Part shown: positions 1 through 46,473 of the stretch, piece by piece
Numbering within the stretch: position 1 is the stretch's first letter
Layout of the letters: every line of letters starts with the position of its first letter
Source: a virus
Taxonomy: Duplodnaviria; Caudoviricetes
Direction: 5' to 3' (one strand)
IMG/VR virus record: IMGVR_UViG_3300013132_000081
Location: 1-46,769 of that record
Length of the DNA: 46,769 bases
Notes under the pieces: generated by a model
Seen by the model: the letters and a program-made list of their open reading frames with translations, nothing else
Databases searched by the model: none
Told to the model about the DNA's origin: nothing
Translations under genes and position numbers: made by a program

Positions 1-9
1 CCCCGGCCA

Positions 10-27
10 CCCCCCCCCCCCCCCCCC
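10..27 (+). repeat. Poly-C tract (18 C)
   Basis: Directly visible homopolymer about 250 bp upstream of the terS candidate. Confidence 0.9.
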
Positions 28-276
28 AGGGCGCCATGCCGGCACCTCGCCCGTCGGTCGTCCGGACGCTCGCGACGGGGGAATGACTGCCGGAAGGTGA
101 GCGCACCGGGAGCGGTCCCGGAGGAGGCGGTTCGACCCCGCCCCTGCCGACCAGCACCGGACCGCCGGCCCTCCCGCCGGTGGTCCGCTGTCGTCTCCAG
201 CCGCGGCGCAACGGCGCGCCACGATCGGTCCGCAGCGCAACACGGCGACGGCAACAAGCGAGCGAAGGGGACGGCC

Positions 277-9115: not shown

Positions 9116-10150
9116 ATGGTGATGGTCCTCGACCTGGCCGACCCGCAGGAGCTCCTGGGGTACACCCGGGGCATCCAGGAGGAGCTGGAGGCCAACCGCT
9201 TCACGCTCAACCAGTACCTGCCCAACGACTTCATCGACGAGATCGAGTTCCGCATCACGCAGGGCAACCTGCGCGACGCGGACGCCGCCAAGATCCGGGC
9301 GTGGGACACCGAGTCCCCGATCGGCTCGAGGCAGGGTCTCAGCCGCATCTGGGGCGAGCTGCCCCCGATCAGCAAGAAGATCCGCCTCGGTGAGGAGGAG
9401 CGCCTCCGCAAGAGGGCCCTCGAGCGGGGCGAGAACTCCGCCCTCGTCGACGCGATCTACGACGACGCGGCCCAGATGGCCCGCGCCGTCATCGCCCGCG
9501 TCGAGCTGCTGAGGGGCGAGGCGCTCTTCAACGCCCAGCTCGTCATCAACGAGAACGGCGTCAAGCAGACCGTGGACTTCGGCCGCAAGGCCGAGCACTC
9601 GGTCACCGCCGCGACCCTCTGGTCCAACGCCGCGACGGCCACCCCGGTCGCCAACATGCGGGCCTGGACCGAGGCCTACATCGACACCAACGGCTCGGCC
9701 CCGGCCTTCGCCCTGACGTCGAACAAGGTCCTCAGCGACCTCCTGCTCAACAACGAGATCCGGCAGCTGGCGTACAACGTCGGCGGCGGCACGGTCCCGT
9801 CGTTCACCACGCCGGAGACGGTCAACTCCGTCTTCCGCGCCTTCGGCCTGCCGGAGATCCGGACCTACGACGCCAAGGCGCGAGTCGACGGCGTCCAGAC
9901 CCGGATCACCCCGGAGCGCCAGATCGTGCTCATGCCCTCGGCGGACGAGCCCCTGGGCGCGACGCTGTTCGGCGAGACGGCCGAGTCGATGGAGCTGGTC
10001 GAGGCCCGCGCCATCGACCAGGACCAGGCCCCCGGCCTGGTCGCCACGGTGCACAAGCTCGACGACCCGGTCTCCACCTGGACCAAGGTCGCCGGCATCG
10101 CGCTCCCCGTGCTGGTCAACCCGGACCTCACCTTCCGGGCCAACGTCTGA
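9116..10150 (+). CDS. Major capsid protein (lambda gpE-like)
   Basis: 344 aa; ELPPISKK, VDFGR, LPVL..P motifs; position; strong codon bias. Confidence 0.92.
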   Translation: MVMVLDLADPQELLGYTRGIQEELEANRFTLNQYLPNDFIDEIEFRITQGNLRDADAAKIRAWDTESPIGSRQGLSRIWGELPPISKKIRLGEEERLRKRALERGENSALVDAIYDDAAQMARAVIARVELLRGEALFNAQLVINENGVKQTVDFGRKAEHSVTAATLWSNAATATPVANMRAWTEAYIDTNGSAPAFALTSNKVLSDLLLNNEIRQLAYNVGGGTVPSFTTPETVNSVFRAFGLPEIRTYDAKARVDGVQTRITPERQIVLMPSADEPLGATLFGETAESMELVEARAIDQDQAPGLVATVHKLDDPVSTWTKVAGIALPVLVNPDLTFRANV

Positions 10151-10162
10151 CCGACGGCCAAG

Positions 10163-10200
10163 GACGGCCCCTGACCCACTTCCCCGGGCCAGGGGCCGTC
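10163..10200 (+). terminator. Hairpin terminator after the capsid gene
   Basis: GACGGCCCCTG...CAGGGGCCGTC inverted repeat. Confidence 0.7.
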
Positions 10201-10255
10201 CCCGTCTTGCGGCACACTCGAACAGTCGACACAACACCTTCACGAAGGAGCACCA

Positions 10256-10600: not shown

Positions 10601-10644
10601 CAACGGCCCCGCCCCGGGATCCTCCCCCCGGGACGGGGCCGTTG
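10601..10644 (+). terminator. Hairpin terminator upstream of the peptide gene
   Basis: CAACGGCCCCG-CCCGGG...CCCGGG-CGGGGCCGTTG. Confidence 0.75.
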
Positions 10645-10697
10645 CAGTCCGCCGCCGGTGGCAGGCGCGTGGACACCGGGCGGGGTAGCCTGGTCCC

Positions 10698-10802
10698 ATG
10701 AAGACCGTCAAGCGCGCCGTCCTGTCCGTCACCCTCGCCGTCACCGCCGTCCTCGGCTCCGCGACCTTCGCGGCCGCCAAGGACACCACCTGGGGGTACT
10801 GA
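10698..10802 (+). CDS. 34-aa secreted pro-peptide MKTVKRAVLSVTLAVTAVLGSATFAAAKDTTWGY
   Basis: Translated by hand; all 34 codons end in G/C; basic n-region, hydrophobic h-region, AAA cleavage motif; TAGCCT -10 box 6 nt before the ATG (leaderless). Confidence 0.85.
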   Translation: MKTVKRAVLSVTLAVTAVLGSATFAAAKDTTWGY

Positions 10803-10824
10803 CCCCCCACGGCGACCCGAGCGG

Positions 10825-10860
10825 GAGCCCCTAGTCCTCGTCGAGGGCTGGGGGCTCTTT
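10825..10860 (+). terminator. Intrinsic terminator after the peptide gene
   Basis: GAGCCCCTAGTCCTC...GAGGGCTGGGGGCTC followed by TTT. Confidence 0.8.
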
Positions 10861-10881
10861 CCATTCAGTTTGGATTGGGGG

Positions 10882-10911
10882 GTTACGTGCCGTCCATCAC
10901 CGTGGTACTCT
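10882..10911 (+). promoter_or_regulatory. Promoter GTTACG-N18-TACTCT (leaderless, for gene at 10918)
   Basis: Same architecture as the right-arm promoters; ATG 6 nt downstream of the -10 box. Confidence 0.7.
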
Positions 10912-10917
10912 TCTCAC

Positions 10918-11136
10918 ATGACCACCAACGAGAACACCTTCCTGCCGACCGACCGCACCTGGTCCGAGACCCCCGTCCCCGCCCTGAAGGCCGGCGACAG
11001 GGTCCACGTCGGGTTCATGTCCGCCCGCATCGAGTCCATCGACGAGGTCCTCGTCGGCCGCCGCCTCCACCTGAACGACGGCCGCACCCTCTTGATCCGC
11101 AAGACCGTCACCCTTCCCGTCGCCAAGGAGAGCTGA
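10918..11136 (+). CDS. Small beta-rich protein (LKAGD motif family)
   Basis: Leaderless ATG; PVPALKAGDRV motif shared with right-arm genes. Confidence 0.75.
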   Translation: MTTNENTFLPTDRTWSETPVPALKAGDRVHVGFMSARIESIDEVLVGRRLHLNDGRTLLIRKTVTLPVAKES

Positions 11137-11991: not shown

Positions 11992-13764
11992 GTGCCCTCC
12001 CGGCAGCCGCCGGCCGCCTCCGCCGCGTCGCGGCCGCTCATCGAGGCCTACGCCCGCGCCTGGGAGCGGGTCGAGGACCTGCAGGCGTCCATCGCCGACG
12101 ACCCCCGCCGCTGGCGCCAGGCCGCCAAGCTGGCCGAGGCCCAGCGGGCCATCGAGGCGTCCCTGGACGGCCTTGACGCCATGGCCCAGGACTGGTTCAC
12201 CAACGAGTTCCCCAGGGTCCACGCCATGGGCGTGAACGCCGGGGCCCGCGAGCTCCTCGCGCCCGCCGGCCAGGTCTGGGACGCGATCAACCCCGAGGCC
12301 GTCAGCCGGCTGGCCAACGAGGGCTTCGACGACCTGCTCAGGTCCACCCGCCTGACCCGCAGGACGACCAAGGACCTGATCCGCCGGGTCGTCGGCGACG
12401 AGGCCCTGCAGAAGGCCATCCAGGGCGACACGGCCGTCGCGGCCGCGCGCCGGGCCAGGAAGCTGCTGGCGGACCACGGCATCTACTCGGTCGTCTACTC
12501 CGACGGGACCAAGGTCGGCCTGAAGCAGTACGCCTCCATGGCCGTCCGAACCAAGACCGCCCAGGCCTACAACCTCGGGACCATCGACGCCGGCAGGACC
12601 CAGGGCGTCGACAAGTGGGAGATCTTCGACGGGGACTGCGGGCTGACCACCCACGACGGCCCGACCTGCAACGGCCTCATCGTCACCGGCGACATCGCGA
12701 TGGCCTACCCGATCAGCCACCCGAACTGCCAGCGGGCCTTCGGCGCCCGGCCCGACCTGTCGGCCGGCTTCGACAAGCGGGTCAGCGACCAGGACCTCGC
12801 GGCCATGACCGACGAGGAGAAGCGCCTCGCCAGGAACGAGGCCAGCCGCCGGTCCAAGGCGAAGGCCAAGGCCCGCAAGGAGGCGGAGGCCAGGGCCAGG
12901 ACCCAGGCCCCGCCGCCGGCCGCGGCCGAGACCGAGCTGCAGAAGCTCCAGCGCGAGATGCGCGAGACCATGGCCAAGCGCAAGGCCTTGGCCCAGGCGA
13001 CCAGGGAGGCGGAGCGCAGGCTCGCCACGCCGCCGGCCAACCCCGGCTGGCCGCCCGCCCCGAAGTCGGCCAAGGCGTCCGTCCGCGAGGTCGACCTGCC
13101 TGACCCGCCCCCGCCCCCGAAGCCTCCCGACGGCTGGCCGCCTCCGCCGCGCGCCAAGGGCCGGAGCACCGACCAGACCAAGCGCCTCCCGCCCGACGCC
13201 GGCCGGACCCCCGCCGACGCGGCCCGGCGGAGCCGCTTCGAGCAGGAGCTCCCCGAGCTCGGGGACAGGTCCGCGGCCAACGCCCTGCGCGGGGCCAACC
13301 CCCGCTACCGGGACGGCCAGGAGTACCGGGTCAACTGCACCAACACCGTGACGGCGTACGAGCTCAGGCGCCGGGGCTACGACGTCTCGGCGGCCGGCCT
13401 GCAGAACAACACGACCGGCCGGTCCATCCAGGACTTCATGGACGCCTGGGGCGGGGACGCGCGGAGGGTGGCCGACAACCCGGCCTTCGACCGCGACGAC
13501 CTCATCAGGACGATCAAGGCGGACATGCCCGACGGCGCCCGCGGCTTCGCCATGGTGGTGTACAACTCCGGCATGCGCCGGGGCGGCCACATCTTCTCCT
13601 GGGAGTACCACGGCGGCAAGGTCCACTGGATCGACCCGCAGACCGGGCAGGCCTTCAAGGAGGCCGACAACTTCCTCTTCGACGGGGCTACCCGGGACCT
13701 GGTCATGTACGGCAGACTGGACGACATGGGCACCTACTCCGACCTGATGGAGCACCTGGCGTGA
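11992..13764 (+). CDS. MuF-like minor capsid protein with C-terminal papain-fold (Tox-PL-like) toxin domain
   Basis: MuF motifs YASMAVRT..AQAYN and HPNCQR; Pro-rich linker; NC..AYELRRRGY, GGHIF and IDPQ give a Cys-His-Asp triad. Confidence 0.85.
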   Translation: MPSRQPPAASAASRPLIEAYARAWERVEDLQASIADDPRRWRQAAKLAEAQRAIEASLDGLDAMAQDWFTNEFPRVHAMGVNAGARELLAPAGQVWDAINPEAVSRLANEGFDDLLRSTRLTRRTTKDLIRRVVGDEALQKAIQGDTAVAAARRARKLLADHGIYSVVYSDGTKVGLKQYASMAVRTKTAQAYNLGTIDAGRTQGVDKWEIFDGDCGLTTHDGPTCNGLIVTGDIAMAYPISHPNCQRAFGARPDLSAGFDKRVSDQDLAAMTDEEKRLARNEASRRSKAKAKARKEAEARARTQAPPPAAAETELQKLQREMRETMAKRKALAQATREAERRLATPPANPGWPPAPKSAKASVREVDLPDPPPPPKPPDGWPPPPRAKGRSTDQTKRLPPDAGRTPADAARRSRFEQELPELGDRSAANALRGANPRYRDGQEYRVNCTNTVTAYELRRRGYDVSAAGLQNNTTGRSIQDFMDAWGGDARRVADNPAFDRDDLIRTIKADMPDGARGFAMVVYNSGMRRGGHIFSWEYHGGKVHWIDPQTGQAFKEADNFLFDGATRDLVMYGRLDDMGTYSDLMEHLA

Positions 13765-14144
13765 GGGTCAACGACTTCGAGCAGGCCAGGGCCAGGGCCC
13801 TGGCCTGGGCCGGCGACTCCTTCATCAGCCGGGGCACCCTGGCCGCGCTGGACTCCGGGCAGGAGGACGACTGGTACTTCCGGGTCGTCCTGGGCGCCCG
13901 CGAGTGGCTGGTCGGGCGGGACCCGCTCTTCGCCCCGGCGGAGGAGCCCGTCATCCTGGTCGAGAAGGCCACCGGCCGGGTCTCGGTTCACAGCTTCGCC
14001 GAGGCGCAGGCCGGCCTGTCGCTCATGCGGCCGGTCGGCGCGGGCGAGGTCTTCGACCCCGTGCCGGCCGAGGAGGCCAAGCGCCGCGCCAGGCGCAGCG
14101 TAGAGGCCCGCCTGGCCCGCCGCAGGCGCTTCAAGGGCAAGTAG
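13761..14144 (+). CDS. Putative immunity protein for the MuF toxin (Imm35/YrhB-like)
   Basis: GTGA-coupled to the toxin; FEQARARA...PVILVEKATGRV pattern. Confidence 0.65.
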   Translation: MRVNDFEQARARALAWAGDSFISRGTLAALDSGQEDDWYFRVVLGAREWLVGRDPLFAPAEEPVILVEKATGRVSVHSFAEAQAGLSLMRPVGAGEVFDPVPAEEAKRRARRSVEARLARRRRFKGK

Positions 14145-28201: not shown

Positions 28202-28741
28202 ATGACCGTGATCTACAGGGGCAAGCCGGCCTGCGAGTGCCTGGCCAAGTGGCTGCCCGTCTACGAGCGGGAGCTCCGGGAGACCGGGAACCTGCAGGGC
28301 GACCTGGTGGTCTACCAGCTCAACGGCAACGCCGCGGAGTCGGCCGGCACCCACACCGGGGGCGCCTACGACGTGACCGACGGCAGGCCCGACCAGGGGG
28401 ACGTCTGGATCGGCCGGCAGATGGGCGCAGCCGAGTGGCTCAGGACCCCGCCGAAGTTCGTCACCCACAGGCACGGCGTCCTGCGCGGCTGCCCCCACAA
28501 CCACGGCGGCCGGTACCAGATCGGCCTGCTCGACCAGGGCTTCGACGGCCTGGTCGGCAACGCCCCCGACAACGGGCCCAGGAACTTCCAGCCCCGGACC
28601 TGGCAGGAGGGCATCAAGTGGGCCCGCCGGCGCCAGCGCCGGCGCTGGGCGGCGAGGAAGCTCACCAAGCTGCGGGCCGAGAAGGCCAAGCTGCAGGCCA
28701 CGATCAACAGGCTGCGGAAGCTCCGCAGCGACCTCAAGTGA
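28202..28741 (+). CDS. Endolysin, M15-like zinc peptidase
   Basis: SAGTHTGGAYD (H-x5-D) and HRH motifs; GAGGAGG RBS; flanked by membrane genes. Confidence 0.8.
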   Translation: MTVIYRGKPACECLAKWLPVYERELRETGNLQGDLVVYQLNGNAAESAGTHTGGAYDVTDGRPDQGDVWIGRQMGAAEWLRTPPKFVTHRHGVLRGCPHNHGGRYQIGLLDQGFDGLVGNAPDNGPRNFQPRTWQEGIKWARRRQRRRWAARKLTKLRAEKAKLQATINRLRKLRSDLK

Positions 28742-29384: not shown

Positions 29385-29855
29385 TCAGCGGCGCTTGAGC
29401 TGTGCCAGCTTGGCCTTCAGGCGGGCGATCTTGGCGGCCTGCCGCTCGACCCGGCGCTGGATCCCGGCGTCGGCCTGGGCCGGCACCTCGACGGCCCGCA
29501 CGGCCTCGACGGTCCGGACCTCGGCCGGCTCGCAGGAGACCGGCGCCGGCGCGGCGGTCGCCGGGGCCTGGTGGTCGCCGGCGGGCGCGGGGTAGGGGTT
29601 CTCCCCGTCCCAGACCTCGCCGTCGCCGGCGCCGAGGCCGGAGCAGCCGGCCACCGAGTTGACGAAGGCGGTAGCCCGGTGGCCGCGCACGGCCTCCCAG
29701 GTCTCGTAGTCCTCCGCGAGGTGGGCGGAGAAGCGGCCGTCGTCCCCGAAGTCCACGCAGAGCTGCTGGACGTCGGAGGCATGGGCGGCGGGGGCCGCGC
29801 CGAGGGTGGCCCCCGCCACGATGGCGGTCACCAGGGCGACGATGGTCTTCTTCAT
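29385..29855 (-). CDS. Secreted protein with signal peptide and basic coiled-coil tail
   Basis: MKKTIVALVTAIVAGATLGAAPAAHA signal peptide; AAGGA RBS. Confidence 0.8.
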   Translation of the reverse strand: MKKTIVALVTAIVAGATLGAAPAAHASDVQQLCVDFGDDGRFSAHLAEDYETWEAVRGHRATAFVNSVAGCSGLGAGDGEVWDGENPYPAPAGDHQAPATAAPAPVSCEPAEVRTVEAVRAVEVPAQADAGIQRRVERQAAKIARLKAKLAQLKRR

Positions 29856-32605: not shown

Positions 32606-32977
32606 TCAGTCCTCCTTGGGGTAGGGCAGTCCGTTGACCCACGCGGTCGTGGGGTCGTAGTCGACTGACCACGTCCACGAGTGGGACCCGAGGTCGTAGA
32701 GGCCGTCCTCGTCGGGCTCGATGACGTCGACCCACTCCTCCTCGTCGAAGGTCTCGGTCACCACGAGGGTGCCGTCGTCCTCCCACCTGTGGGAGTAGGA
32801 GTTGGGCAGCGCGGGCTCCTCCTCCGCGGCCTTGGCGAACGAGTGCATCACGGTCTCGACCGCGTGCGGGTCCATCCGCGGGGTCAGCCACCCGTTCCAC
32901 GTGTAGTCGAGTGGGTACTGCCCCATCACGGTGACCATCTCGTCGAGGCACACGGGCCCCGTGGCGAAGGCGCTCAC
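32606..32977 (-). CDS. Acidic hypothetical protein
   Basis: TWNGWLTP and GLYDLG..SWTW motifs; GTGA coupling. Confidence 0.75.
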   Translation of the reverse strand: MSAFATGPVCLDEMVTVMGQYPLDYTWNGWLTPRMDPHAVETVMHSFAKAAEEEPALPNSYSHRWEDDGTLVVTETFDEEEWVDVIEPDEDGLYDLGSHSWTWSVDYDPTTAWVNGLPYPKED

Positions 32978-33159
32978 TTGTCACCCTCCTCGACGAGGGC
33001 GACCTTGGTGTTGGTCGGCTGCGGGTAGGTGTTGACCCCGCCGCTCACGGTGTTGTTCACGGTGATGAAGGTCGTCTTGGCCGTGCGGCGGACTGCGAGG
33101 ACGCGGCCGCTGGCGAGGACGTCGCCCTTCTTGACGTCCGCGGTCTGAATGAACTTCAT
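32974..33159 (-). CDS. Small beta-rich protein (VKKGD motif family)
   Basis: ATG 3 nt after the palindromic RBS. Confidence 0.75.
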   Translation of the reverse strand: MKFIQTADVKKGDVLASGRVLAVRRTAKTTFITVNNTVSGGVNTYPQPTNTKVALVEEGDK

Positions 33160-33162
33160 TGG

Positions 33163-33176
33163 GACCTCCCCAGGTC
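33163..33176 (-). promoter_or_regulatory. Palindromic start-associated sequence (copy 4)
   Basis: GACCTGGGGAGGTC. Confidence 0.85.
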
Positions 33177-33199
33177 GTAGGCGTTGTTGCCGTGGAAGA

Positions 33200-33229
33200 A
33201 ACATACGCCGCCTGTGGTCCCTACGTAAA
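33200..33229 (-). promoter_or_regulatory. Promoter TTTACG-N18-TATGTT
   Basis: Repeated promoter architecture, preceded by a hairpin at about 33235-33272. Confidence 0.7.
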
Positions 33230-33312
33230 CAGTTCGGCCCGCCCCAGTTCCAGGGGGAACCGGGACGGGCCGTCGACTGGTGGCTCTCGGGCCAGCCGCC
33301 GGGTGGGGCGCC

Positions 33313-33699
33313 TCACTGGCCGGCCAGCTTCACCCGGGTGCGCCACTCGTCGATGACGGCGTTCACGGCGTCGCGGCGCTTCGCCTCGGGCTCGCCGATC
33401 TTGACCGGCCTCTTGTCGGCCGGCCCCATCACCTCGGGCTGGTAGAACCAGCCCGGCCTGTCCTCGAACTCGACCATCACCACCCGGCCGACGTGCTGGT
33501 CCTTGACGACCACCCAGAAGGCCGTCAGGCGCTGGCTGGGGAGGCGCGGGTCCTTGCGCCGCCGGATGGGCGCGAGGTCCATGGGCTTGCTCAGGTCGTA
33601 CGGGCTCGGCTCCAGGTGGTGGGCCGGCCTGCGGCCGGACCGCCTCGGTCGCGGGACCAGCCCGTCTGCCGTGCGGTCCTTCTCCTTGGTCATGGTCAT
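33313..33699 (-). CDS. Basic hypothetical protein
   Basis: AGGGAGA RBS; open ORF of about 128 aa. Confidence 0.65.
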   Translation of the reverse strand: MTMTKEKDRTADGLVPRPRRSGRRPAHHLEPSPYDLSKPMDLAPIRRRKDPRLPSQRLTAFWVVVKDQHVGRVVMVEFEDRPGWFYQPEVMGPADKRPVKIGEPEAKRRDAVNAVIDEWRTRVKLAGQ

Positions 33700-33832
33700 C
33701 ACTGTCTCCCTCACTCGGGCTCCCTCCCTGGGGGCCGGTAACAGGAGTGTGGCGTGAGTGTGATAGGCCCGTAAACGGCTTATGACTAATCTAAGCGATT
33801 CTGGCTAGTAATCACGCCGGCGTGCTTCCGGG

Positions 33833-36415
33833 TCAGCCGTAAGCCGGCGCCGTTGCCTCCATGAGCCTGCCGGCGCCGCCCGGCAGCACGTACTGGCGCT
33901 GCCTGGTGATCGGGTTGGCCCGCTTGTAGGCCTGCCAGTCGTTCTCCAGGATGTTGGCGATCGCGACCACGCCGCCGGGCAGGACGAAGGTGCCGGCCTT
34001 GTTGACCACCTGGACGAAGGACTCCAGCTGCACGATGACGTCGTCGCCGTGCACCTGGACGACGGGCTCGGTGGCGCCGTAGACGGTCTGGCCCTGGGCC
34101 CAGATCAGCGCCTCGGTCGTCGGGTCCGTGTGGTCGCTGACGTTGGCCAGGTAGGCGCCGAGGTTCGGCTGGCCCGGGTCGTTGCCGGTGGCGGCCTGGT
34201 AGAAGGACCTGAACAGCTCCCAGCCAACCTGGAGGATCTGCTGGTTGGTGGTCTGCCGGTCGATGGTCGTGTTGACCCTGAGGCTGGGCAGGGCCTGCGC
34301 CTGGTTGCCCTCCACGAGCCACCGGAGGTACGCGTGGCCGAGCCCGGACGTGTCGGTGGCCAGCAGGCTCTCGAGGTCCGCCCGGTTCTTGTCGGTGCGG
34401 TCGAGCTTGACCCAGACCATCCGCTCGATGTGCGAGGTCTCGGTGAAGGCGTCCTCGCCCGTCACGATGATGGGGGCCTCGGTCGGCATCTCGATGATGG
34501 CCAGCGGGTTCTTGTCCGACCCGCCGCCCTTCTTGGTGGGGCTGCGGTCGTAGGCGTCGCGCAGGACCTGGTCCAGGGCGCGCTTGGACTCCTCGCGGCT
34601 GCCCGGCCGGTACTCGTCGAACCAGACGGGGATGCCGTTGGAGACGCCGACCTGGGCGAGGATGGCGTGCGGCGTCGTGCCCGTGATCGTGGTGAAGATC
34701 TTCCAGCCCAGCTTGTCGAGCAGGGCGCGGATCAGGGTCGTCTTGCCGGAGCCCGACTGGCCGGTGACCGCCAGGAAGGGGAACACCTCGAAGGTCGACC
34801 GCAGGGGCGCCGCGAAGAGCCACGCGATGATGGGGTGCATGATCTCCGGCCGGCGGAGGTTCAGCATCAGGTCCAGGGCACGGGGGTCCCAGGGCCCCTC
34901 CTGGATCTTCAGGGACTTGCTCGACAGGCTAGCCGCCGGGGGGATGTACCGCCAGTAGTCGGGGCCGATGTAGCCGTCCGGCAGGACGAACTGGCCGTCG
35001 TGCCAGCCGAGCACCGAGGTGGCCCGGCCCCGCCCGAGGAAGGGCCCCTCGTTCTGGAGGTTGCCCAGGAGGGCCGCGGCGTCCCTGGAGGAGCCGAGCC
35101 AGTTGCCGCCGACGGTCTCGGCCCAGGCCTTGATCGACGCGTCGCTGCGGAGGTTGTGCGACTGGAGCAGGACGTCCTTGCCGTTGACCATGCCCTCGTA
35201 CGCCTTCGAGCCGTCCTCCAGCGCGAGCTCGCGCAGCGGGTCCAGGGCCCAGTTGCTGATGACGGTCTCGGTGTCTTCGTCGTTCTCGTCCCGCGCCGGG
35301 GTGGTCCGGATGTAGACCCCGCGCTCCCGGTCGTAGGAGACGTTGCCGACGCTGGGCGGGACCGCGCTGGCCTCCATCACGACCCGGACCAGGTTCGGCA
35401 CCGTGGCCAGGTCCTTGCCGTCGGGGAGGGTGGCGAAGCGCAGGCTGTTGGGCCCGCGGTCGGGCGGCATGTGGCTGAGCTTGAACCACCACTTCCTCGC
35501 GGCGACGCGGCCGGCGCGGTCGCCGTCGAAGGCGATGACCACGTCCTTGTCCTCGAGGAGCTTGACCCACGCCTCCTTGGGGTACGCGCTGGCCCCCGAC
35601 GGCAGGGACAGGACGTCTATGTCCTGGCCCCAGAGGGCGGCGCTGGCGCACCAGGCGTCGGACTCGCCCTCGCAGAGCAGGACCCGCTTGTGGCCCTGCA
35701 TCTGGTACTCGCCGTAGAGGTGGGCGAGGTCGGACCCCTTGCGGGCGATGAGGTGCGACCGCGGTGAGCGGGTCTTCAGGGCCTTCACCTGGGGCTGGCC
35801 CTCGGCGTCGCGGGACAGGTGGGGGACGACGGTCGTCCAGTCGTCGTCGACGCCGACGTGCCAGTGGGCCCGGAGGAAGTCCGCGGTCAGGAGGGCCCAG
35901 CCGGGCTCCCCCTTGACGTTGGCCTTCTCGTCGATCAGGCGGAGGACGGCCGTCTGGTCCGCCGCCGCGAGGGAGCTTGCCTGGCGGGCGATCGCGATCA
36001 GGTCGGCGGGGTCGGCCTTGGGCCTCGCGTGGGCGGCCTGCTCGCCCGCCTGGGACCTCCAGTTGGGGTCGGCCTGGAACTCCTGCAGGAGGGCCGCCGC
36101 GTGGTCCACGGCCTGCGCCAGGGGCACCTGGAGGAAGCGCTGGAGGAAGTCGAACAGGTCGCCGTTCTTGAAGTCGCAGCCCCAGCACCCGACGCGGCTG
36201 AGGGCGAGCTCGTCCCCCGGCTGGTGGAACACCGCGAAGGAGGGCGACTCGTCGGGGTGGAAGGGGCAGAGCGACACCAGCCGCCCGTCCCCCGACGGCT
36301 CGAGCATGACCCCCTTGCGGCCCAGCACCCACTCGACGGGCAGGGCCCGCTTGATGCCGTGCATGTCGTGGGAGCGACGCGGACTCGCGTGCTCGAGCAG
36401 GCCCCAGTCGGCCAT
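33833..36415 (-). CDS. DNA primase-helicase (CHC2 zinc finger, TOPRIM, P-loop helicase)
   Basis: CPFH..PSF..CWGC; CEGESD, FDGDRAG, GKDL; Walker A GQSGSGKTT, Walker B WFDEY. Confidence 0.9.
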   Translation of the reverse strand: MADWGLLEHASPRRSHDMHGIKRALPVEWVLGRKGVMLEPSGDGRLVSLCPFHPDESPSFAVFHQPGDELALSRVGCWGCDFKNGDLFDFLQRFLQVPLAQAVDHAAALLQEFQADPNWRSQAGEQAAHARPKADPADLIAIARQASSLAAADQTAVLRLIDEKANVKGEPGWALLTADFLRAHWHVGVDDDWTTVVPHLSRDAEGQPQVKALKTRSPRSHLIARKGSDLAHLYGEYQMQGHKRVLLCEGESDAWCASAALWGQDIDVLSLPSGASAYPKEAWVKLLEDKDVVIAFDGDRAGRVAARKWWFKLSHMPPDRGPNSLRFATLPDGKDLATVPNLVRVVMEASAVPPSVGNVSYDRERGVYIRTTPARDENDEDTETVISNWALDPLRELALEDGSKAYEGMVNGKDVLLQSHNLRSDASIKAWAETVGGNWLGSSRDAAALLGNLQNEGPFLGRGRATSVLGWHDGQFVLPDGYIGPDYWRYIPPAASLSSKSLKIQEGPWDPRALDLMLNLRRPEIMHPIIAWLFAAPLRSTFEVFPFLAVTGQSGSGKTTLIRALLDKLGWKIFTTITGTTPHAILAQVGVSNGIPVWFDEYRPGSREESKRALDQVLRDAYDRSPTKKGGGSDKNPLAIIEMPTEAPIIVTGEDAFTETSHIERMVWVKLDRTDKNRADLESLLATDTSGLGHAYLRWLVEGNQAQALPSLRVNTTIDRQTTNQQILQVGWELFRSFYQAATGNDPGQPNLGAYLANVSDHTDPTTEALIWAQGQTVYGATEPVVQVHGDDVIVQLESFVQVVNKAGTFVLPGGVVAIANILENDWQAYKRANPITRQRQYVLPGGAGRLMEATAPAYG

Positions 36416-36458
36416 GTGTGTGATCCTTCCCGCCAGGGACCCGCCCAGGTCCTTGGAT

Positions 36459-36515
36459 TGGTGGGGCGCAGGGAGTTGAACCCTATCCCGCGTCCGGCCC
36501 GGTGCCGGTCGCCCC
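36459..36515 (-). ncRNA. Truncated tRNA-like element (acceptor stem, T arm, CCA; no canonical anticodon arm)
   Basis: GGGGCG...TAGGG-TTCAACT-CCCTG-CGCCCC-A-CCA, 57 nt, intergenic. Confidence 0.6.
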
Positions 36516-36523
36516 CGGTGCTG

Positions 36524-36913
36524 CTAGTCGAACTGGGGAGCCTGGAAGCGCCCCTCCGCCTCGAGGGCGTGGAGCCAGGCCGCGCCCATGGCGGTCAGCT
36601 GGACGAGCTCCTCGCGCAGGGAGTCGAAGTCCCCGTTGTCGTAGGTCGTCCGTCGCGCGATGCGGCCGAGCTGGGCCTGGACCTCGTTGCTCTTGCGGAG
36701 CAGGAGGAGGGACACCTCCTCGGCGACCTCGCCGCCCTCCTCCATGAGGATCCCGAGCCGCTTGCCGGCGTCGTGGCCGGGTGCGGCCATCGACTCGGGG
36801 CCGTGCTTCCTGCCGGCCCTGAGGATCTCCTCCGAGACCTCGTCGAGGATGCCGGCCAGGATCACGCCGCTGACGGCGTCGGCCACCGTCCCCTGGACGC
36901 TCGCCACGCCCAT
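36524..36913 (-). CDS. MazG-like nucleotide pyrophosphohydrolase
   Basis: ILMEEGGEVAEE...LREELVQ.AM...W motifs. Confidence 0.75.
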   Translation of the reverse strand: MGVASVQGTVADAVSGVILAGILDEVSEEILRAGRKHGPESMAAPGHDAGKRLGILMEEGGEVAEEVSLLLLRKSNEVQAQLGRIARRTTYDNGDFDSLREELVQLTAMGAAWLHALEAEGRFQAPQFD

Positions 36914-37788
36914 CAGAAGCTCGCCTGGGGGGCCGCGGGCGCTCCGGCCTGGGGAACGCCGGGCGGCTGGGGCGCGGGGACCCCGGGCTGGCTCGGCGGC
37001 TGGAAGGCCGGCGGCGCGGCCGCGGGGGCGCCGGGCATGCCGGGCATCTGCGGCGGGGCCTGCTGGACCGGGGGCGCCTGCGGGGGCGCCATCGGCGGGG
37101 CCTGCTGCTCCTGGGCGGGCGGAGCCGCGTACTGCTGCGGCGCGGGCGGGGCCATGGCCGCAGCCTGGGCCGGGGGCGCCATGCCGGGCTGGGGCATCCC
37201 CGGGGCGGGCATGCCCCCGGGGGCCGGCGGCGGGAAGCCCCCTCCGGCCGGAGGGGCCTGGACCCCGGGCATCGCGGGCGGCGGCGGGGTGCCCAGGCCG
37301 AGCGAGCCCGCGGTCGGCGCGGCGGCCGGCTCCGGCGGGTCCACGCCGTCGTCCTCGGTGAACGACCCGAAGTTGTTCCTCGTCGCGTCGTTCTTCTGGA
37401 GCGTGGCGTTGGCCTTGCAGGCCCGGTTGACGAGCTGCTGGGCGATGAACTCGCAGTGCTCGCGGGTGATGGCCTGGTTGCCGAAGGACTGGATCAGCCA
37501 CTCCTTCGTGATGCCGAAGGCCAGCATGTCGCCGAGGAAGAAGCCCAGCGACTGCTCGGCCTTGTCGTCGTGCTGGTCGGGGAGGACCCAGTTGTGCCAG
37601 ACCTTCCGGCCCTTGGCCTTGCCCTCGTTGATGACCTCCATCTGCACGGAGACCATCTGCTTGCCCGACTGCGCGGTCTTGCCCTGGCCCGTGAGGATCC
37701 GGAACCGGTAGGTCGCGGGGGCGAGGGGCTGGAAGCCCGCGTTGGGCTGGACGTTCTGGAGCACTGCTCCCCAGGTCACGGAACTCAC
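36913..37788 (-). CDS. ssDNA-binding-like protein (DUF669-like) with long Pro/Ala/Gln tail
   Basis: FQPLAPATY...SGKQM...KGRKVW; follows the Sak4-like ATPase; GGAGG RBS. Confidence 0.75.
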   Translation of the reverse strand: MSSVTWGAVLQNVQPNAGFQPLAPATYRFRILTGQGKTAQSGKQMVSVQMEVINEGKAKGRKVWHNWVLPDQHDDKAEQSLGFFLGDMLAFGITKEWLIQSFGNQAITREHCEFIAQQLVNRACKANATLQKNDATRNNFGSFTEDDGVDPPEPAAAPTAGSLGLGTPPPPAMPGVQAPPAGGGFPPPAPGGMPAPGMPQPGMAPPAQAAAMAPPAPQQYAAPPAQEQQAPPMAPPQAPPVQQAPPQMPGMPGAPAAAPPAFQPPSQPGVPAPQPPGVPQAGAPAAPQASF

Positions 37789-38660
37789 TGCTGGATACCT
37801 CCGGTGTTTGCGGGGCCGGCGTTGTACCGGCCCTCGAGGATGTTGATGAAGTCGGTCAGGTCGTACCCGCCGGCCCCGGTGTCGATGTCCTTCAGCGCCA
37901 CGACGGAGCCGAAGGTCCGGGACAGGACGTGGGTGCGGTCCTTGGCCACGTATTGGCCGTAGGGCTGGATCATGAGCCGGCGCAGGAGGCCCTGCCCGTC
38001 GGCCGCCTGCTCGGTGTACAGGAACCCTACGAGGTCCACGAAGCCGGGCAGGGCCTTCTGCAGTGACCCCTGGAGGAACGGCCGGAAGAGGCCGCCGTTC
38101 TTGTCGTCGGTGAGCGTCAGGAAGATCACGTTCTGGAGCGGGTTGGCCGGGTCCTTCGCGATGTCGCGCATGCGGCGGACGACGGCCTCCATCTCGATCA
38201 GGAGGTCGCCCCAGTGCTGGGTCTGCATCCGCTCGGTCCCGCGGATGGCGTCGCGGCACCGCTTCTGGATCTCGGTCAGCGAGTCCAGGATGGCCGACTT
38301 GAACGGGTGCATCCCGGAGTCGAGCCACTGGTGGACGCGCGCCCAGGTCGCCCAGTCGCGGACGATGACCCGGACCGTCTCGGCGCAGACCTCCTGGCCG
38401 GGCTCGCAGCCCTGGACGCCCGGCGGGGCGTACAGCAGGGGGTTCCAGATCTGCTTGGGCCACGACGGCGTGTACTCGGAGCCGCCCTCCGCGTCGAGGA
38501 CCAGCCGGGGGCCCGGGACGCTGTCGGCCAGCGTGGACTTGCCGCCGCCCGACTCCCCGTGGATGACCGCCGTGAAGCTGCTCCTCTGCCAGGCCGCGAC
38601 CTCCGCGACCTGGGCGACCTGGGCGACGACGGCCTGCTGGTCGTACTGCTGCTGGGTCAT
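37785..38660 (-). CDS. AAA ATPase, Sak4-like recombinase
   Basis: HGESGGGKST, LVLDAEGG, ILDSLTE, AKDR motifs. Confidence 0.85.
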   Translation of the reverse strand: MTQQQYDQQAVVAQVAQVAEVAAWQRSSFTAVIHGESGGGKSTLADSVPGPRLVLDAEGGSEYTPSWPKQIWNPLLYAPPGVQGCEPGQEVCAETVRVIVRDWATWARVHQWLDSGMHPFKSAILDSLTEIQKRCRDAIRGTERMQTQHWGDLLIEMEAVVRRMRDIAKDPANPLQNVIFLTLTDDKNGGLFRPFLQGSLQKALPGFVDLVGFLYTEQAADGQGLLRRLMIQPYGQYVAKDRTHVLSRTFGSVVALKDIDTGAGGYDLTDFINILEGRYNAGPANTGGIQQ

Positions 38661-40192
38661 CCCTTCTCCACCTCTGTGTACCTCTCGTAGGGGTCGTGCT
38701 GGACGAACTCCAGCTGGACCACGGACTCTACGTCGGAGCCGTCGTCGAACTGGGGGCAGGTCATGAAGAAGGGGCAGTCCCACGAGCAGTCGCGCGTCGG
38801 GTTGGGGTAGGCCACCACCTGGTGGTCGGCGCCCTCGTCGAGGTACCGGCGGACCCGGAGGATGTCGGTGACCTCGCCCCAGACCCGCTTGTGGAAGTTC
38901 CGGTAGACGGTGTCGTTGTGGGACACCGACGCCCTGCCGTAGAAGGGCGGGTTGGACCTGGCAGTCCGCTTGACCTTGCGGAGCATGTTCCACATGCCGC
39001 CGCTGGCGAAGCGCTGGTCGGGCCGGCCCTCGGCGATCGCCTCCATCCGCTGGAGGAGGCCGTAGGTCTTGAGCTGCTCGTCGAGGGGCCCCGTCTTGGG
39101 CAGGTCGCTGAGGGTCTGGCAGGACTTGTGGTCCATGAACACCACGCGGCCGTCGGAGCGCAGCTCGGTCTCGGTGTCGAGCTTGCCGATGAGCCAGACC
39201 TCGGCGCCCTCGATGTGCCCCAGGTAGGCCTCGATCTCCCTCTCCGCGGAGAGGACGTTGATCTCGCTGTCGGCGCCCTCCTCGACCAGCCACTCGAAGT
39301 AGCCCCTGAGCATGATCTTGACCAGCTCGTAGTCCTCGAGCATGCGGCCGTGGAGGTGGTCCGGCAGGTTGGGGTCCTCGAGCCGGGCCTCGACGTGGCG
39401 GGCGAGCGGGGTCTCCCAGTCGAAGGTCTCGGGGTCGCGGGCCGGCTCGGCGTAGTACAGCTCGAGCGGGTGGTGGATCATGTTGCCGATGGAGAGCGGG
39501 CCCACGCCGTCGCGGCGGGGCGTGAGCTTGTGGTAGTAGGCCAGCCACCACTTGCGGCGGCAGCGCTTGAATGCCCGGAGCTCGGAGTTGCTGAACTTCA
39601 TGACGGGTGCCGAGACCGCGCCCTCCGCGAGGGTCGGCTCGGCGACGACTGGGTGGTCCACTGGTGATCCTTCCTGCGAGGGGATGCCCGTCCCCTCCGA
39701 CTCCTGAACAGTAGCGCGCGTGGTCGGCGCGTGGTCCCCGTGTGCGGCGGCCGCCTCGGCCCCCATCTCCCGGGCTCTGTCGGCCCACTCGTCAGCCCTC
39801 AGGTTCCCCGCGTTGTCCCGGTGGCCCTTTACCCAGACCAGCTCGCACTGGGCGCCCTGGTAGGCCCACAGGGCCTCCTGGACGAGCTCCAGGTTGGCCG
39901 GCTCGGTGCCGTCGGCCTTGCGCCAGCCCCTGGCCTCCCAGCCCGGCGCCCACTTCGTGAGGATGTTGACCCAGAGCTGGCTGTCGGTGTAGATCCTGGT
40001 GACGGGCGAGCCGTCGCCGGCCTCGCCGCACAGGAGCATGGCCGCGACCAGGGCCTGGCCCTCCATCGCGTTGTTGGTCGCCCAGTCGGCGGCGCCGAGC
40101 AGGACGGGGCCGGAGGCGTCGACGACGGCCCAGCCGCCGGGCCCGGGGTTGGTGGGCCCGGCCGACCCGTCGGTCCACAGCTCGTCCGTCAC
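38657..40192 (-). CDS. RNase HI fused in frame to a PD-(D/E)XK (Cas4/RecB-like) exonuclease
   Basis: WTDGS..NPGPGGW, TNNAME, YTDSQ, WVKGH..GN..AD; then SNSE...CRRKW, GKLD, MDHK, C.WDCPF...C; no stop codon between. Confidence 0.85.
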   Translation of the reverse strand: MTDELWTDGSAGPTNPGPGGWAVVDASGPVLLGAADWATNNAMEGQALVAAMLLCGEAGDGSPVTRIYTDSQLWVNILTKWAPGWEARGWRKADGTEPANLELVQEALWAYQGAQCELVWVKGHRDNAGNLRADEWADRAREMGAEAAAAHGDHAPTTRATVQESEGTGIPSQEGSPVDHPVVAEPTLAEGAVSAPVMKFSNSELRAFKRCRRKWWLAYYHKLTPRRDGVGPLSIGNMIHHPLELYYAEPARDPETFDWETPLARHVEARLEDPNLPDHLHGRMLEDYELVKIMLRGYFEWLVEEGADSEINVLSAEREIEAYLGHIEGAEVWLIGKLDTETELRSDGRVVFMDHKSCQTLSDLPKTGPLDEQLKTYGLLQRMEAIAEGRPDQRFASGGMWNMLRKVKRTARSNPPFYGRASVSHNDTVYRNFHKRVWGEVTDILRVRRYLDEGADHQVVAYPNPTRDCSWDCPFFMTCPQFDDGSDVESVVQLEFVQHDPYERYTEVEKG

Positions 40193-42066
40193 GCCGGCCC
40201 CTTGTGGCCGAGCATGCGCCGGAGGATGCCCTCGTCGTTGACGACCTCCTGGAAGTGCACCTCCTTGCCCTCCAGCTTCTCGATCTTGTCGAACTCCTCG
40301 AGGGTGCCCTCGGAGACCACCGTGATGATGGAGACCGAGCCGGCCTTCTGGCCGGGCCTGTCGACGCGGGCCTTGAACTGCTTGTTCTCGATCGGGTCCC
40401 AGGACTCCTGGAGGAACACCAGGGTGTCGGCGGCCACCAGCTCGTTCAGGCCCTCCTTGGCGGCGCTGATGACGCACAGGGCGACCTTGGCCGAGCCCTG
40501 CTCGAAGGCCCTCAGGTAGGCGTCCTGCTCGTGGTCGTTCATCCCGCCGGCGACGAGGCAGTACGGGATCTTGGCCTTGAGCAGGGCCTCCTCGCAGAGG
40601 GCGATGAGCTGGCGCGACGGGGCACCGAAGACGATCTGGCGGGACGGGCCCGCCTCCTTGGTGATGCCTATCTCCTCGACGAGCTCCAGCATGACCTTGA
40701 CCTTGTTCGACGGGGCCTTGAGCTGGAGGTCCAGCAGGGTCTCGCCGGTCTCCGGGTCCTTGCGCCCCTTGTCGACCATCTCGCCGTAGGCCTGGGACAG
40801 CTGGTGGAGGCGGCCGCTGGCCGTCATCTTGCGGGTGTCGACCAGCACGCCGCCGTCGAGCTCGGCCATCATGTCCTTGGCCATGGACGCGTACGCGGTC
40901 GCCTGCTTGGGCTCCATCGGCACGGAGAGGGTGTGCTCCATGACCTGGGGCTTGAACGGGTCGAACTGGACGCGGAGCCGGCGGATGCCGTACGGCTCGA
41001 AGGCCTGGTAGAACTCCTCGCGGGTCTCCGGCTTCACCCCGCCGATCTCCATCCCGCCGAAGGCGTTCCACATCGTGGTGGCGTACCTGTCGACCATCCT
41101 GGAGTAGGCCGGCCAGGCGACCTCGTCGAGGAAGTTCAGGATGGACCAGGCCTCGGCGCTGTTGTTGGACACGGGGGTCCCGGTCAGGGCGTAGCGGAAG
41201 CGGGCGGGCGTGGTGCCGACCCGCTGGGTGCCGAAGGCGATCGCCTTGAGGGCGCGGGTCTGCTTGGACTTGCGGTCCTTCGCCCGGTGCGCCTCGTCGG
41301 CGACGACCGTGGACCAGTCGACCTCGTTGAGGAGGTTGGGCTCCCGCTCCTTCGGGGTCATCTCGATGTTCCCGAAGGCCTCCAGGCGCGACAGGCCGGC
41401 GAGGCTCTCCCAGTTGGTCACGACGACCTGCGGCCGCTCGTCGGCGGGGACCTCCGGGTCGGTCAGGCGCGCGAGGAGCTTGCGCTGCTGGGCCTTGCCC
41501 TTGGGCATGACCTCGACGCGCAGCTCCCCCCAGAACGGGCCCTGGCCGTCGCGGTCGTCGTGGGCCTCCTTGACCCACGTGCGCCGGACCTTGTTCGGGC
41601 AGACGACCAGGGCCGGGAAGACCTCGTCCTCGCCGTGCAGGGCGACGGCCAGCTTCATGGCGGCCAGGGTGGTGCGGGTCTTGCCCCCGCCCATCTCGTC
41701 CATCTCGGCGTAGCGCTCGGCGAAGACCATCGCCCAGGTGGCCACGCGCTGGAGCGGCCAGAGGCGCTCGGCCGTCGGCCCCTGGAGCGGGAAGTCCTCC
41801 ATGTACCGGAGAGTCAGGAGCGGGCCGAAGCGGTGCTCCCAGTGGTGCTGGCCCCAGGCCACGTAGGTGGGGTCGGGCTCGATGGACCAGGCGAAGACGC
41901 CGTTGACGGCCACGTAGGCCGGCCAGGTGGCCGTGGCCACCCAGGCACCCTGCGGTCCGACGCCCGCCTTCCAGGTCGCCCCGGGCACCTGCTTGGCGAG
42001 GTCCCCCTCGTGCAGGCCGCACTCGAGGACGAAGGCGTCCATCGCCTGGTCGTACGAGGCCCTCAC
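40189..42066 (-). CDS. SNF2-family helicase
   Basis: DEMGGGKT, DEAH, LTGTP, EGLN, R.DRPGQ motifs. Confidence 0.9.
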   Translation of the reverse strand: MRASYDQAMDAFVLECGLHEGDLAKQVPGATWKAGVGPQGAWVATATWPAYVAVNGVFAWSIEPDPTYVAWGQHHWEHRFGPLLTLRYMEDFPLQGPTAERLWPLQRVATWAMVFAERYAEMDEMGGGKTRTTLAAMKLAVALHGEDEVFPALVVCPNKVRRTWVKEAHDDRDGQGPFWGELRVEVMPKGKAQQRKLLARLTDPEVPADERPQVVVTNWESLAGLSRLEAFGNIEMTPKEREPNLLNEVDWSTVVADEAHRAKDRKSKQTRALKAIAFGTQRVGTTPARFRYALTGTPVSNNSAEAWSILNFLDEVAWPAYSRMVDRYATTMWNAFGGMEIGGVKPETREEFYQAFEPYGIRRLRVQFDPFKPQVMEHTLSVPMEPKQATAYASMAKDMMAELDGGVLVDTRKMTASGRLHQLSQAYGEMVDKGRKDPETGETLLDLQLKAPSNKVKVMLELVEEIGITKEAGPSRQIVFGAPSRQLIALCEEALLKAKIPYCLVAGGMNDHEQDAYLRAFEQGSAKVALCVISAAKEGLNELVAADTLVFLQESWDPIENKQFKARVDRPGQKAGSVSIITVVSEGTLEEFDKIEKLEGKEVHFQEVVNDEGILRRMLGHKGPA

Positions 42067-42257
42067 AGGAGCCCAGCCCGGGGATCGATGAGGATTGCGG
42101 CCACGACCAGGGCGACCGCCAGGAGGCCGGGCAGCACGCCGACCTTGACGGACCGGCCGGTGCGGGCGTAGCTGATGCCCATCCCGATGATCGCCAGCTG
42201 CCAGAGGAGGGCAGCGCCGGCGAGGACGCAGAGGATGAGCTGGATGGTCATGGTCAC
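42063..42257 (-). CDS. Small two-TM membrane protein
   Basis: Two hydrophobic segments; GTGA coupling at both ends. Confidence 0.7.
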   Translation of the reverse strand: MTMTIQLILCVLAGAALLWQLAIIGMGISYARTGRSVKVGVLPGLLAVALVVAAILIDPRAGLL

Positions 42258-42721
42258 AGGAGGCTCCTGGGGTCGATGAGGTTCTGGCGGACTGCGTAGA
42301 CGAGGGCGTGCCGGGCTGCGTCGCGGCGGTGGCCGGCCTCGCCCTTGGCACCGTCCCACCAGCCGACGGCCTTGAGCTTCCGGCTCCCCTCGGCGAAGGA
42401 CTTGTCCGAGGGCAGCTGGCGGGCGAACGGGGTGTGGTACCAGCGGCAGAAGGTCTGCAGCACGCCGATCTGCTTGATGGACCACATGACCTCGTCGGAA
42501 GAGGCCTCCTTGGCGGTCCGCTGGTTGACGGTGAACCCCTCCATGAGGACCAGGTCCAGGTCGCCGGTCTGGATCCTCGTGAAGGCGTAGTCGATGAACT
42601 CGTCGTGCGGCAGCTCGCCGCCGCGGAAGGCGACCGAGCTCTTGTCCCCGACGGTCCAGGTGAGGTCGCCGTAGCCGGTCATCTTTCCGGGGTCGACGAT
42701 CAGGGCGGTGCGGTGCTCCAC
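42254..42721 (-). CDS. RuvC-like Holliday junction resolvase
   Basis: VDPGKMTG, LMEGF, HRRDAARH motifs. Confidence 0.75.
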   Translation of the reverse strand: MEHRTALIVDPGKMTGYGDLTWTVGDKSSVAFRGGELPHDEFIDYAFTRIQTGDLDLVLMEGFTVNQRTAKEASSDEVMWSIKQIGVLQTFCRWYHTPFARQLPSDKSFAEGSRKLKAVGWWDGAKGEAGHRRDAARHALVYAVRQNLIDPRSLL

Positions 42722-42771
42722 TGCTCTCCTTCCGGCCACCCGGTGCCCACCGGCGGCGCACATGGATCGTA

Positions 42772-44559: not shown

Positions 44560-44685
44560 GGTGTTCCTTCCTCGGGGGCCGCCGCCCAGCGGCCCTGCGG
44601 TGCTCGGGGTCCCGGCCCGACGGGGGCTAGCCGACTGAGCGATGTGTGGTTCAGCGTGCGCCCTGGCTCGGGCCGGGTCCCGGGC

Positions 44686-45120
44686 TCAAACCCTGCCGCG
44701 GGCCCTGACCACTTCGGCCACCCTGGCGGCCGCCTCGTCCGGCCGGTCGTGCTCCCAGACGCGGACGACGGACCACCCCGCCGCCGTGAGCCTCTCGGTC
44801 GTGTCCAGGTCCCTGGCGCGGGTCCGCTCGATCTTCGCCCGCCACCAGGCCTCGTTGGCGCCGGAGGGCCTGAAGTGCTCGGGGCACCCGTGCCAGTAGC
44901 ACCCGTCGACGAAGACGGCGACCCGGGCGCCGACGAAGGTGACGTCGGCCTTGCGCCTCAGGCCGTCCAGGCCGAGCGGCCGGTCGAGCCGGTAGCCGGT
45001 CAGCCCCAGGCGCCGGAGGTGGAACCGCAGCTCGACCTCCGGCTTGGTGTCCCGGACCTTGACCCGGCGCATCCGCTCCGACACGGCGGCGGAGGTGGCG
45101 GGCGGGTCGCCCCAGCTCAT
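44686..45120 (-). CDS. vsr: Very short patch repair endonuclease
   Basis: SERM..V..RDTKPE, VFVDGCYWHGCP, GW.V.RVWEH. Confidence 0.92.
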   Translation of the reverse strand: MSWGDPPATSAAVSERMRRVKVRDTKPEVELRFHLRRLGLTGYRLDRPLGLDGLRRKADVTFVGARVAVFVDGCYWHGCPEHFRPSGANEAWWRAKIERTRARDLDTTERLTAAGWSVVRVWEHDRPDEAAARVAEVVRARGRV

Positions 45121-46192: not shown

Positions 46193-46473
46193 GAGGCGAA
46201 GTCCGAGTCTCGGAGGCGCCGGGCGTTGTAGGCCACCTCGAACAGGGCACCAGGCCAGAGCCGCAGCTCGACGGACGCCTGCTCCAGGGTCGGGATCTCG
46301 TAGCCGTTGGTCCCGTCCTCGTCGACCACCGGGGAGGTGAGCTTCCGCCAGGTCTCGGTGGACAGCTCAGAGTCCTTGACGATCCTCCGGTAGGAGTGGT
46401 GGTTGGCAAGGGCCTGCTTGGCCTCCTCGACCGCCTTGACCAGTGCGCGCTGCTGCCTGTCGTTGACCTTCAC
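46189..46473 (-). CDS. Hypothetical protein, possible degenerate HTH
   Basis: GTGA coupling; SYRRIVKDSELSTETWRKL...TLEQ...L.L.PG.L. Confidence 0.55.
   Translation of the reverse strand: MKVNDRQQRALVKAVEEAKQALANHHSYRRIVKDSELSTETWRKLTSPVVDEDGTNGYEIPTLEQASVELRLWPGALFEVAYNARRLRDSDFAS

Follow-up and report, generated by a model that had tools for sequence, protein, structure and literature searches.

In the arbitrium system, a Bacillus phage gene encodes a pro-peptide that is secreted and has its short core at the C-terminus (PMC7790227, partial text). The receptor, AimR, is encoded by the phage next to the peptide gene, belongs to the RRNPP/TPR class and controls lysogeny. The chromosomal RRNPP systems Rap-Phr, PlcR-PapR and NprR-NprX are units of a pro-peptide and an intracellular regulator; they are described in Bacillota, and the signals of Actinomycetota are typically small molecules made by enzymes (PMC10075063, partial text). 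The Clostridioides phage phiCDHM1 carries agr signal-making genes without the response regulator; the role proposed for these genes is to signal to the host community (PMC7790227 and PMC11945551, partial texts).

The DNA analysed here (the window) is a whole virus record of 46,769 nucleotides. It comes from a tailed phage that encodes terminase, portal, capsid, tape measure, holin, DNA polymerase and primase, and it contains a short pro-peptide gene. The locus resembles arbitrium in being a phage-borne gene for a predicted secreted pro-peptide with a short C-terminal core. It differs in two respects: searches found neither a receptor nor an integrase, and the regulatory partner of the peptide family, unlike AimR, is TrmB-like with a LuxR-type HTH. 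Among known cases of a signal that lacks its response regulator, phiCDHM1 agr comes closest; however, phiCDHM1 is temperate, keeps AgrB/C/D and depends on AgrB processing and a membrane kinase, whereas the present phage has a single 105-nt gene and no integrase was found in it. No AgrB/AgrC-type family was seen among the phage ORFs in a general Pfam scan. The related D-x-x-W loci of host chromosomes resemble RRNPP systems as two-gene units of pro-peptide and regulator with strain-varying cores, but their receptor gives no TPR match, their precursors often hold several cores and the two genes are convergent in Nocardioidaceae. Strain-varying cores and the control of secreted proteases are features of the PlcR and NprR systems. 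The phage peptide would work like Phr, PapR and AimP but is not RRNPP or arbitrium, because no TPR receptor and no lysogeny module were found.

With respect to gene-encoded peptide signalling, the D-x-x-W core appears from the sequences to be new, the receptor fold of the family is a different one and the phage form is signal-only. No published description of a D-x-x-W peptide family was found in the literature searched (mostly non-subscription articles, main texts). TrmB is absent from the main text of PMC3466318, and Streptomyces and actinobacteria are absent from the partial text of PMC13389391.

The peptide gene and its flanking signals

The 34-codon pro-peptide ORF lies at 10698-10802 (+), where the first-pass annotation had placed it, and its product is MKTVKRAVLSVTLAVTAVLGSATFAAAKDTTWGY. 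G/C occupies 33/33 third positions, as had been claimed, and 19/33 at positions 1 and 2; the chance of such a third-position count is approximately 2e-5 at the flanking GC content of 72%. Third positions were likewise all G/C in 10 of the 49 window ORFs of 25-45 aa. The other short ORFs of this kind, where they could be placed, were antisense shadows of long genes; the peptide ORF is located in an intergenic gap. A head-tail connector-like gene (phrog_6587) precedes it, and head genes follow downstream. Its neighbours are head genes and ORFs without a family, with no adjacent gene for a TPR-type receptor. The peptide has no family in Pfam, PHROGs or NCBIfam and its gene forms a singleton cluster; the best ESM Atlas match (0.86) was to unnamed clusters and was taken as a lead.

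The hexamer TAGCCT at 10686..10691 (+), 6 nt before the ATG, is a candidate -10 element of a leaderless promoter, as had been proposed. The pattern TANNNT-N5-7-(ATG/GTG) has only five occurrences in the 46.8 kb, both strands counted, each of them before a frame with GC3 >= 0.91, and two of the five sites are the starts at 10698 and 10918. No Shine-Dalgarno site was seen before the peptide ORF, and a sigma-70 scan found no promoter. The start at 10918 belongs to a neighbouring 72-aa ORF (10918-11136) of no known family, which has its own extended -10-like site (whole feature 10903..11136, +). This ORF lies outside the cassette, since a relative that lacks the peptide still carries it.

Strong hairpins had been described on both sides of the ORF and both were recovered. 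The upstream hairpin (10601..10644, +) has a C-rich loop and a z score of -4.09, with 0/200 shuffles as good; it likely terminates the capsid/connector transcript and so insulates the cassette. The downstream hairpin (10825..10864, +; stem approximately 10825-10857) is intrinsic-terminator-like with a T-rich tail and has a z score of -2.49 (3/200 shuffles). The loops of both long hairpins of the capsid region (10150-10215 and 10601-10644) are C-rich and resemble the anti-Shine-Dalgarno sequence.

Residues 1-27 (10698..10778, +) were called as a predicted Sec signal peptide by inspection and alignment. Three of the first six residues are basic, the hydrophobic stretch is 16 residues long with a best 11-residue hydropathy of 2.35, and the segment ends in A-A-A directly before K. 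The predicted mature core, K-D-T-T-W-G-Y, is encoded at 10779..10799 (+). This agrees, by inspection, with the earlier description of a Sec-type signal peptide followed by a C-terminal peptide of about seven residues. A small pro-peptide with a predicted signal peptide and a short core is an RRNPP/arbitrium feature, and on the same inspection and alignment the phage peptide has it. A signal peptide followed by a D-x-x-W core also places it in the family described below.

The first-pass annotation had made its reading depend on stronger conservation of the C-terminal DxxWG than of the signal region, and this was found. D and W of the core are invariant in alignments A5 and A2: D29 and W32 are kept in 26/26 and 21/21 other rows respectively, and most signal positions are below 30%. 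Alanine is aligned to A27 in 26/26 other rows of alignment A5.

Genome, lifestyle and probable host of the phage

CheckV rated the window record 56% complete. Window positions 32941-46769 recur virtually unchanged in a second record, G610, which continues for a further 9,542 bp. The extension carries a thymidylate synthase gene and two WhiB genes, the latter marking the phage as actinobacterial, as had been suggested earlier, and ends in a poly-C tract resembling that at the left end of the window. The two tracts (window 1-30 and L442 12300-12371, the right end of G610) are probably one assembly break. The genome would then be approximately 56.3 kb and nearly all of it has been seen, with closure at the poly-C tract as we infer it.

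No tyrosine integrase (PF00589) or resolvase-type serine recombinase (PF00239) was matched in the window or G610, and the phage is therefore likely lytic. The first-pass annotation had reported no RRNPP/TPR receptor in the window; searches for TPR_12 and for regulators found none in the extension either, and in the window and G610 TPR_12 gave no match over the cut-off and one sub-cut-off match inside the tape-measure gene. Taken together as a genome of presumptive closure, the window and G610 showed no lysogeny module of the arbitrium type. Searches of these approximately 56.3 kb turned up neither a regulator nor a TPR protein nor an integrase, and so there is no evident lysogeny switch.

The host was approached through the endolysin-like gene beside the holin (28202..28741, +), which was used for host-family inference only. 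Its product has 119 homologues and no Pfam or PHROGs family; the best organism-named match is a Nocardioides protein (53%). Relatives were present in 7/301 Nocardioidaceae genomes (four at E < 1e-20), 2/301 Streptomyces-family genomes (best 1e-8) and 0/50,697 phage records. The capsid protein is 44% identical to those of Streptomyces phages and at most 37% to those of Nocardioidaceae prophages; the latter comparison took in the unpublished genome G018 and carries no main claim. On these comparisons the host is probably a member of the Nocardioidaceae.

Many phage ORFs have no family. The endolysin-like protein ends in a basic coiled-coil-like tail, and similar tails were seen in the ORF at 29385-29855 (-) and in one ORF of the fragment L291. 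At 11992-14144 (+), a MuF-like minor head protein whose C-terminal domain is a papain-fold toxin (PF15644) is followed by an immunity-protein-like gene (phrog_3585), forming a phage-borne polymorphic toxin pair; relative L001 differs in the C-terminal part. A Vsr-like endonuclease gene (44642-45363, -) has the DNA polymerase gene on one side and the dCMP deaminase gene on the other.

The cassette as an accessory unit

L001, whose capsid protein is 71% identical, has no peptide ORF at the corresponding position. In a contig of soil run X3, from a relative approximately 96% identical over the capsid gene, the segment 10575..10992 (418 nt) is replaced by 217 other letters, and 10574 is joined to 10993. 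Run X10 of the same study contains the identical joint with a shorter side. The net difference of approximately 200 nt matches the size of the promoter-ORF-terminator unit, and on this comparison the peptide cassette is accessory. Exact-core DNA patterns gave 0 matches in viral contigs, among which the peptide is rare.

Searches for the peptide family

Homologues were sought by short query, by pattern and by profile. Pattern and profile searches found the family, whereas the 34-mer and two longer homologues, used as tblastn queries, had no match among 50,697 phage records. The tblastn search was insensitive, having missed Chymera gp30, which inspection places in the family.

Scanning viral contigs for the motif gave 104 loci and 13 in-frame matches; three of the loci hold real precursors. 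Each precursor combines a signal peptide with DTTWG units, two or three in number, and is divergent from a gene of approximately 370-390 aa with a GerE/LuxR-type HTH. One of them, used as query, returned 28 homologues, the named ones being from Streptomyces; D-T-T-W is invariant over 22 aligned rows and the signal region drifts. DTTWG is the dominant core of the Streptomyces phage-plasmid precursors. Two 32-aa proteins with no known context, P0030 and P0031, have the same minimal form as the phage peptide and end KDITWG and KDTTWGY.

A pattern scan of genomes (135 loci) gave 28 in-frame matches, which included six chromosomal precursors and an ORF of phage G004. Four Nocardioides chromosomes carry precursors ending KDITWG or KDISWG; these are convergent with the gene for a 348-aa regulator, which is 25% identical to the Streptomyces one. 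A metagenome scan (49 loci) gave 50 matches, of which two were new and one was the window's own record, and a further scan (26 loci) yielded one paired peptide-regulator system. The pattern scans returned mostly chance matches. One scan used a pattern whose final codon let TGG through as well, and its tally was discarded; of 20 regions retrieved by its coordinates, 2/20 held a peptide-regulator pair.

Host peptide-regulator loci

The regulator profile matched in 72/121 Nocardioidaceae genomes at 1e-20, and a close orthologue (E < 1e-78) was present in 47/121. The first tally takes in the unpublished genomes G029 and G046, on which no main claim rests. Among the best 30 Nocardioidaceae regulator loci, a fixed filter detected an adjacent, convergent ORF for a signal peptide plus D-x-x-W in 29/30; in the one remaining locus a frame ends in DTSWG. 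The same filter gave two hits in 89.7 kb of control loci, which include one from the unpublished genome G084. At viral regulator loci a peptide was found in 19/22 by filter and in 21/22 after a second look, three of the 22 being records that built the query. The Nocardioidaceae site is usually by pckG and tRNA-Ser/Arg genes, a conserved chromosomal position.

The 30 host precursors contain 15 different core units, and 19/30 repeat the unit two to four times. The cores vary from strain to strain, as pherotypes do. DTTWG occurs in 1/30. On the Nocardioidaceae chromosome G231 (L378) a peptide beside the regulator carries DTTWGY twice, a hexapeptide identical to that of the phage. The G231 regulator (L378:744-1742) is a candidate cognate regulator, and G231 itself is at most a putative host. 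The chromosomal D-x-x-W peptides proposed in the first-pass annotation do exist beside a LuxR-type HTH regulator, but the HD-GYP/GGDEF neighbours proposed with them were not seen in the peptide loci inspected. The one constant neighbour is the transcription regulator; modifying enzymes showed no such constancy in the loci seen.

The regulator model (pLDDT 88) comprises an N-terminal helical/wHTH-like part, a long helix, a PLD-like domain and a C-terminal LuxR-type HTH. The known effectors of TrmB proteins are sugars. The model matches TrmBL2 with a profile E of 3e-7 and a fold E of 2e-12; it shares the first three parts with TrmB/TrmBL2 (PDB 5BOX, 5BPD, 3QPH) and differs in the added LuxR-type HTH and in its putative peptide ligand.

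A 22-bp box, TGCA-N6-TGCA-N-TGC, lies approximately 110-160 nt upstream of 24/30 host peptide genes and suggests autoregulation of these genes. Exact matches were found at ten places in five genomes, four at peptide loci and six at or between gene ends. Of these six, one precedes an M6 protease gene, one an RHS protein gene, two C-rich-loop sRNA-like sequences and two nothing nameable. These targets may give a weak hint of regulon content, one that rests on the six exact sites because one-mismatch matches were at chance (48 vs 54 in the control). The phage shows no such box: the best score in the window, 8.8, is inside the shuffled range of 2.3-11.4.

A downstream sRNA-like motif was present at 11/32 host loci and was not found in the phage. 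The segments L452:1500-1720 and L457:1500-1700 are non-coding, with C-rich loops and a GAGACG-GGAC motif, directly behind a regulator-type box. Such elements also occur downstream of the host peptide genes in L328-L355 and are likely sRNAs.

Receptor-less and paired forms in phages

Family, profile and six-frame searches of the window and G610 (approximately 56.3 kb) revealed no TrmB-like/LuxR-HTH regulator; as a positive control, the same profile finds L378 at E 1e-150. An unrelated phage of 60,269 bp, G004, rated 100% complete, also carries a receptor-less version. Its ORF (L230:5001-5087, -) has 28 codons, a ribosome-binding site and a terminator-like hairpin, and encodes three different cores (DSSWG, DTGWG and DISWGY) with no signal peptide, making it a candidate cytoplasmic multi-pherotype mimic. 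No regulator was matched in the whole G004 record (by profile, in 60,000 of 60,269 bp), and no integrase (PF00589, PF00239) was found in it.

Two further instances come from fragments too short to show regulator absence. In L291 (3.9 kb) a holin gene adjoins an ORF for a signal peptide plus KDITWG, while L287 (1.5 kb, 59% GC) encodes a 168-aa secreted protein (L287:392-898, -) with repeated DITWG and a cysteine-containing C-terminal part. Receptor-less copies beyond the window are few: one further complete genome, these two fragments and the two context-less proteins P0030 and P0031. The paired form is present in the cultured temperate Streptomyces phage Chymera (L424:2394-3669), where gp29 is the regulator and gp30 contains two DPGWG units; the pair adjoins the integrase and immunity repressor. 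The regulator was adjacent to the peptide gene in every paired case seen.

Proposed function and alternatives

Our preferred reading, to which we give slightly better than even credence, is that the phage gene is a signal-only copy of a host D-x-x-W peptide that acts on the host regulator. Host polymerase would read the leaderless promoter, placing the gene outside the host feedback loop. The precursor would be exported by Sec and cleaved after A-A-A to (K)DTTWGY, which would re-enter cells and bind the middle, PLD-like domain of the chromosomal TrmB-like/LuxR-HTH regulator. In hosts that share its core type the peptide would be an agonist and in others possibly an antagonist, and regulator activation would switch on a density-type programme. 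The link between ligand and receptor is suggested by gene neighbourhood, and host-signal mimicry itself, as the first-pass annotation proposed it, is what we infer from the sequences. In its favour are the gene with its flanking signals, the stronger conservation of the core than of the signal region, the close linkage of family members to regulator genes in hosts and temperate elements, the hexapeptide shared with G231, and the failure to find a regulator, TPR receptor, integrase or host box in the phage. The unrelated complete phage G004 and the L291 holin fragment are independent receptor-less cases. Against the proposal, DTTWG is rare in hosts (1/30) but common in Streptomyces phage-plasmids, the capsid protein is closer to Streptomyces phages, the record is rated 56% complete with presumptive closure, and receptor-less copies are few.

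The gene could instead be a captured and trimmed host peptide gene that travels as a passenger and now has little if any effect on the phage. Its absence from close relatives, its singleton cluster and its rarity in viral contigs fit such an origin. However, all 33 third positions are G/C, a promoter-like site and terminator of its own replace the host box, the same minimal form recurs in P0030, P0031 and L291, and an unrelated phage has a differently built version. We regard a passenger gene as unlikely, though the best placed of the alternatives.

The dominance of DTTWG in Streptomyces phage-plasmid precursors points to another target, namely co-resident temperate phages or phage-plasmids using the same pair, whose lysis, lysogeny or transfer decisions the peptide would alter. 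Pairs occur at 21/22 viral regulator loci and also beside the Chymera integrase and repressor. Against this, the A-x-A-(K)-D junction and terminal Y fit Nocardioidaceae chromosomal peptides better, and the endolysin points to Nocardioidaceae, whereas the host-named DTTWG elements are from Streptomyces. A target of this kind seems distinctly unlikely.

The AimP-like architecture would also suit an arbitrium-like signal between phages, with its own receptor encoded in an unseen part of the genome or having a fold outside those searched; the 56% completeness rating and the many ORFs without a family leave room for one. Adjacency of the regulator in every paired case speaks against it, as does the lack of a regulator, TPR protein or integrase in both the approximately 56.3 kb seen here and the complete G004, and we consider it improbable. 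Least probable of all is that the product is not a diffusible signal, either because it stays in the membrane uncleaved, with superinfection exclusion as one conceivable role, or because its D-x-x-W unit serves as a substrate or inhibitor of a host enzyme: 27/34 residues are signal-like, the cleavage site was called by inspection and the G004 version has no signal peptide, but selection acts on the core and not on the hydrophobic part, host precursors (19/30) repeat the core, and the constant neighbour is a transcription regulator rather than a modifying enzyme.

The signal-only copy of a host peptide, generalized, would imply that Actinobacteria hold a widespread, undescribed quorum-sensing class of D-x-x-W peptides and TrmB-PLD-like-LuxR regulators, and that lytic phages have repeatedly evolved signal-only forgeries: an exported, single-core form here and a cytoplasmic, three-core form in G004, which could address several host pherotypes from within the infected cell. 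We hold this wider proposal tentatively, at somewhat less than even confidence.

Significance

If peptide signalling of this kind is indeed common to Nocardioidaceae and Streptomyces elements, the small-molecule view of Actinomycetota signalling would change. A phage that keeps only the signal would be natural evidence of which residues are active and of the importance of the signal during infection. The question is directly testable with a cheap 6-7-mer ligand, the candidate cognate regulator of G231 (L378) and the cultured phage Chymera, which has the paired version. If the proposal holds, phage communication would extend beyond the arbitrium systems of Bacillota to forged host signals in apparently lytic phages.
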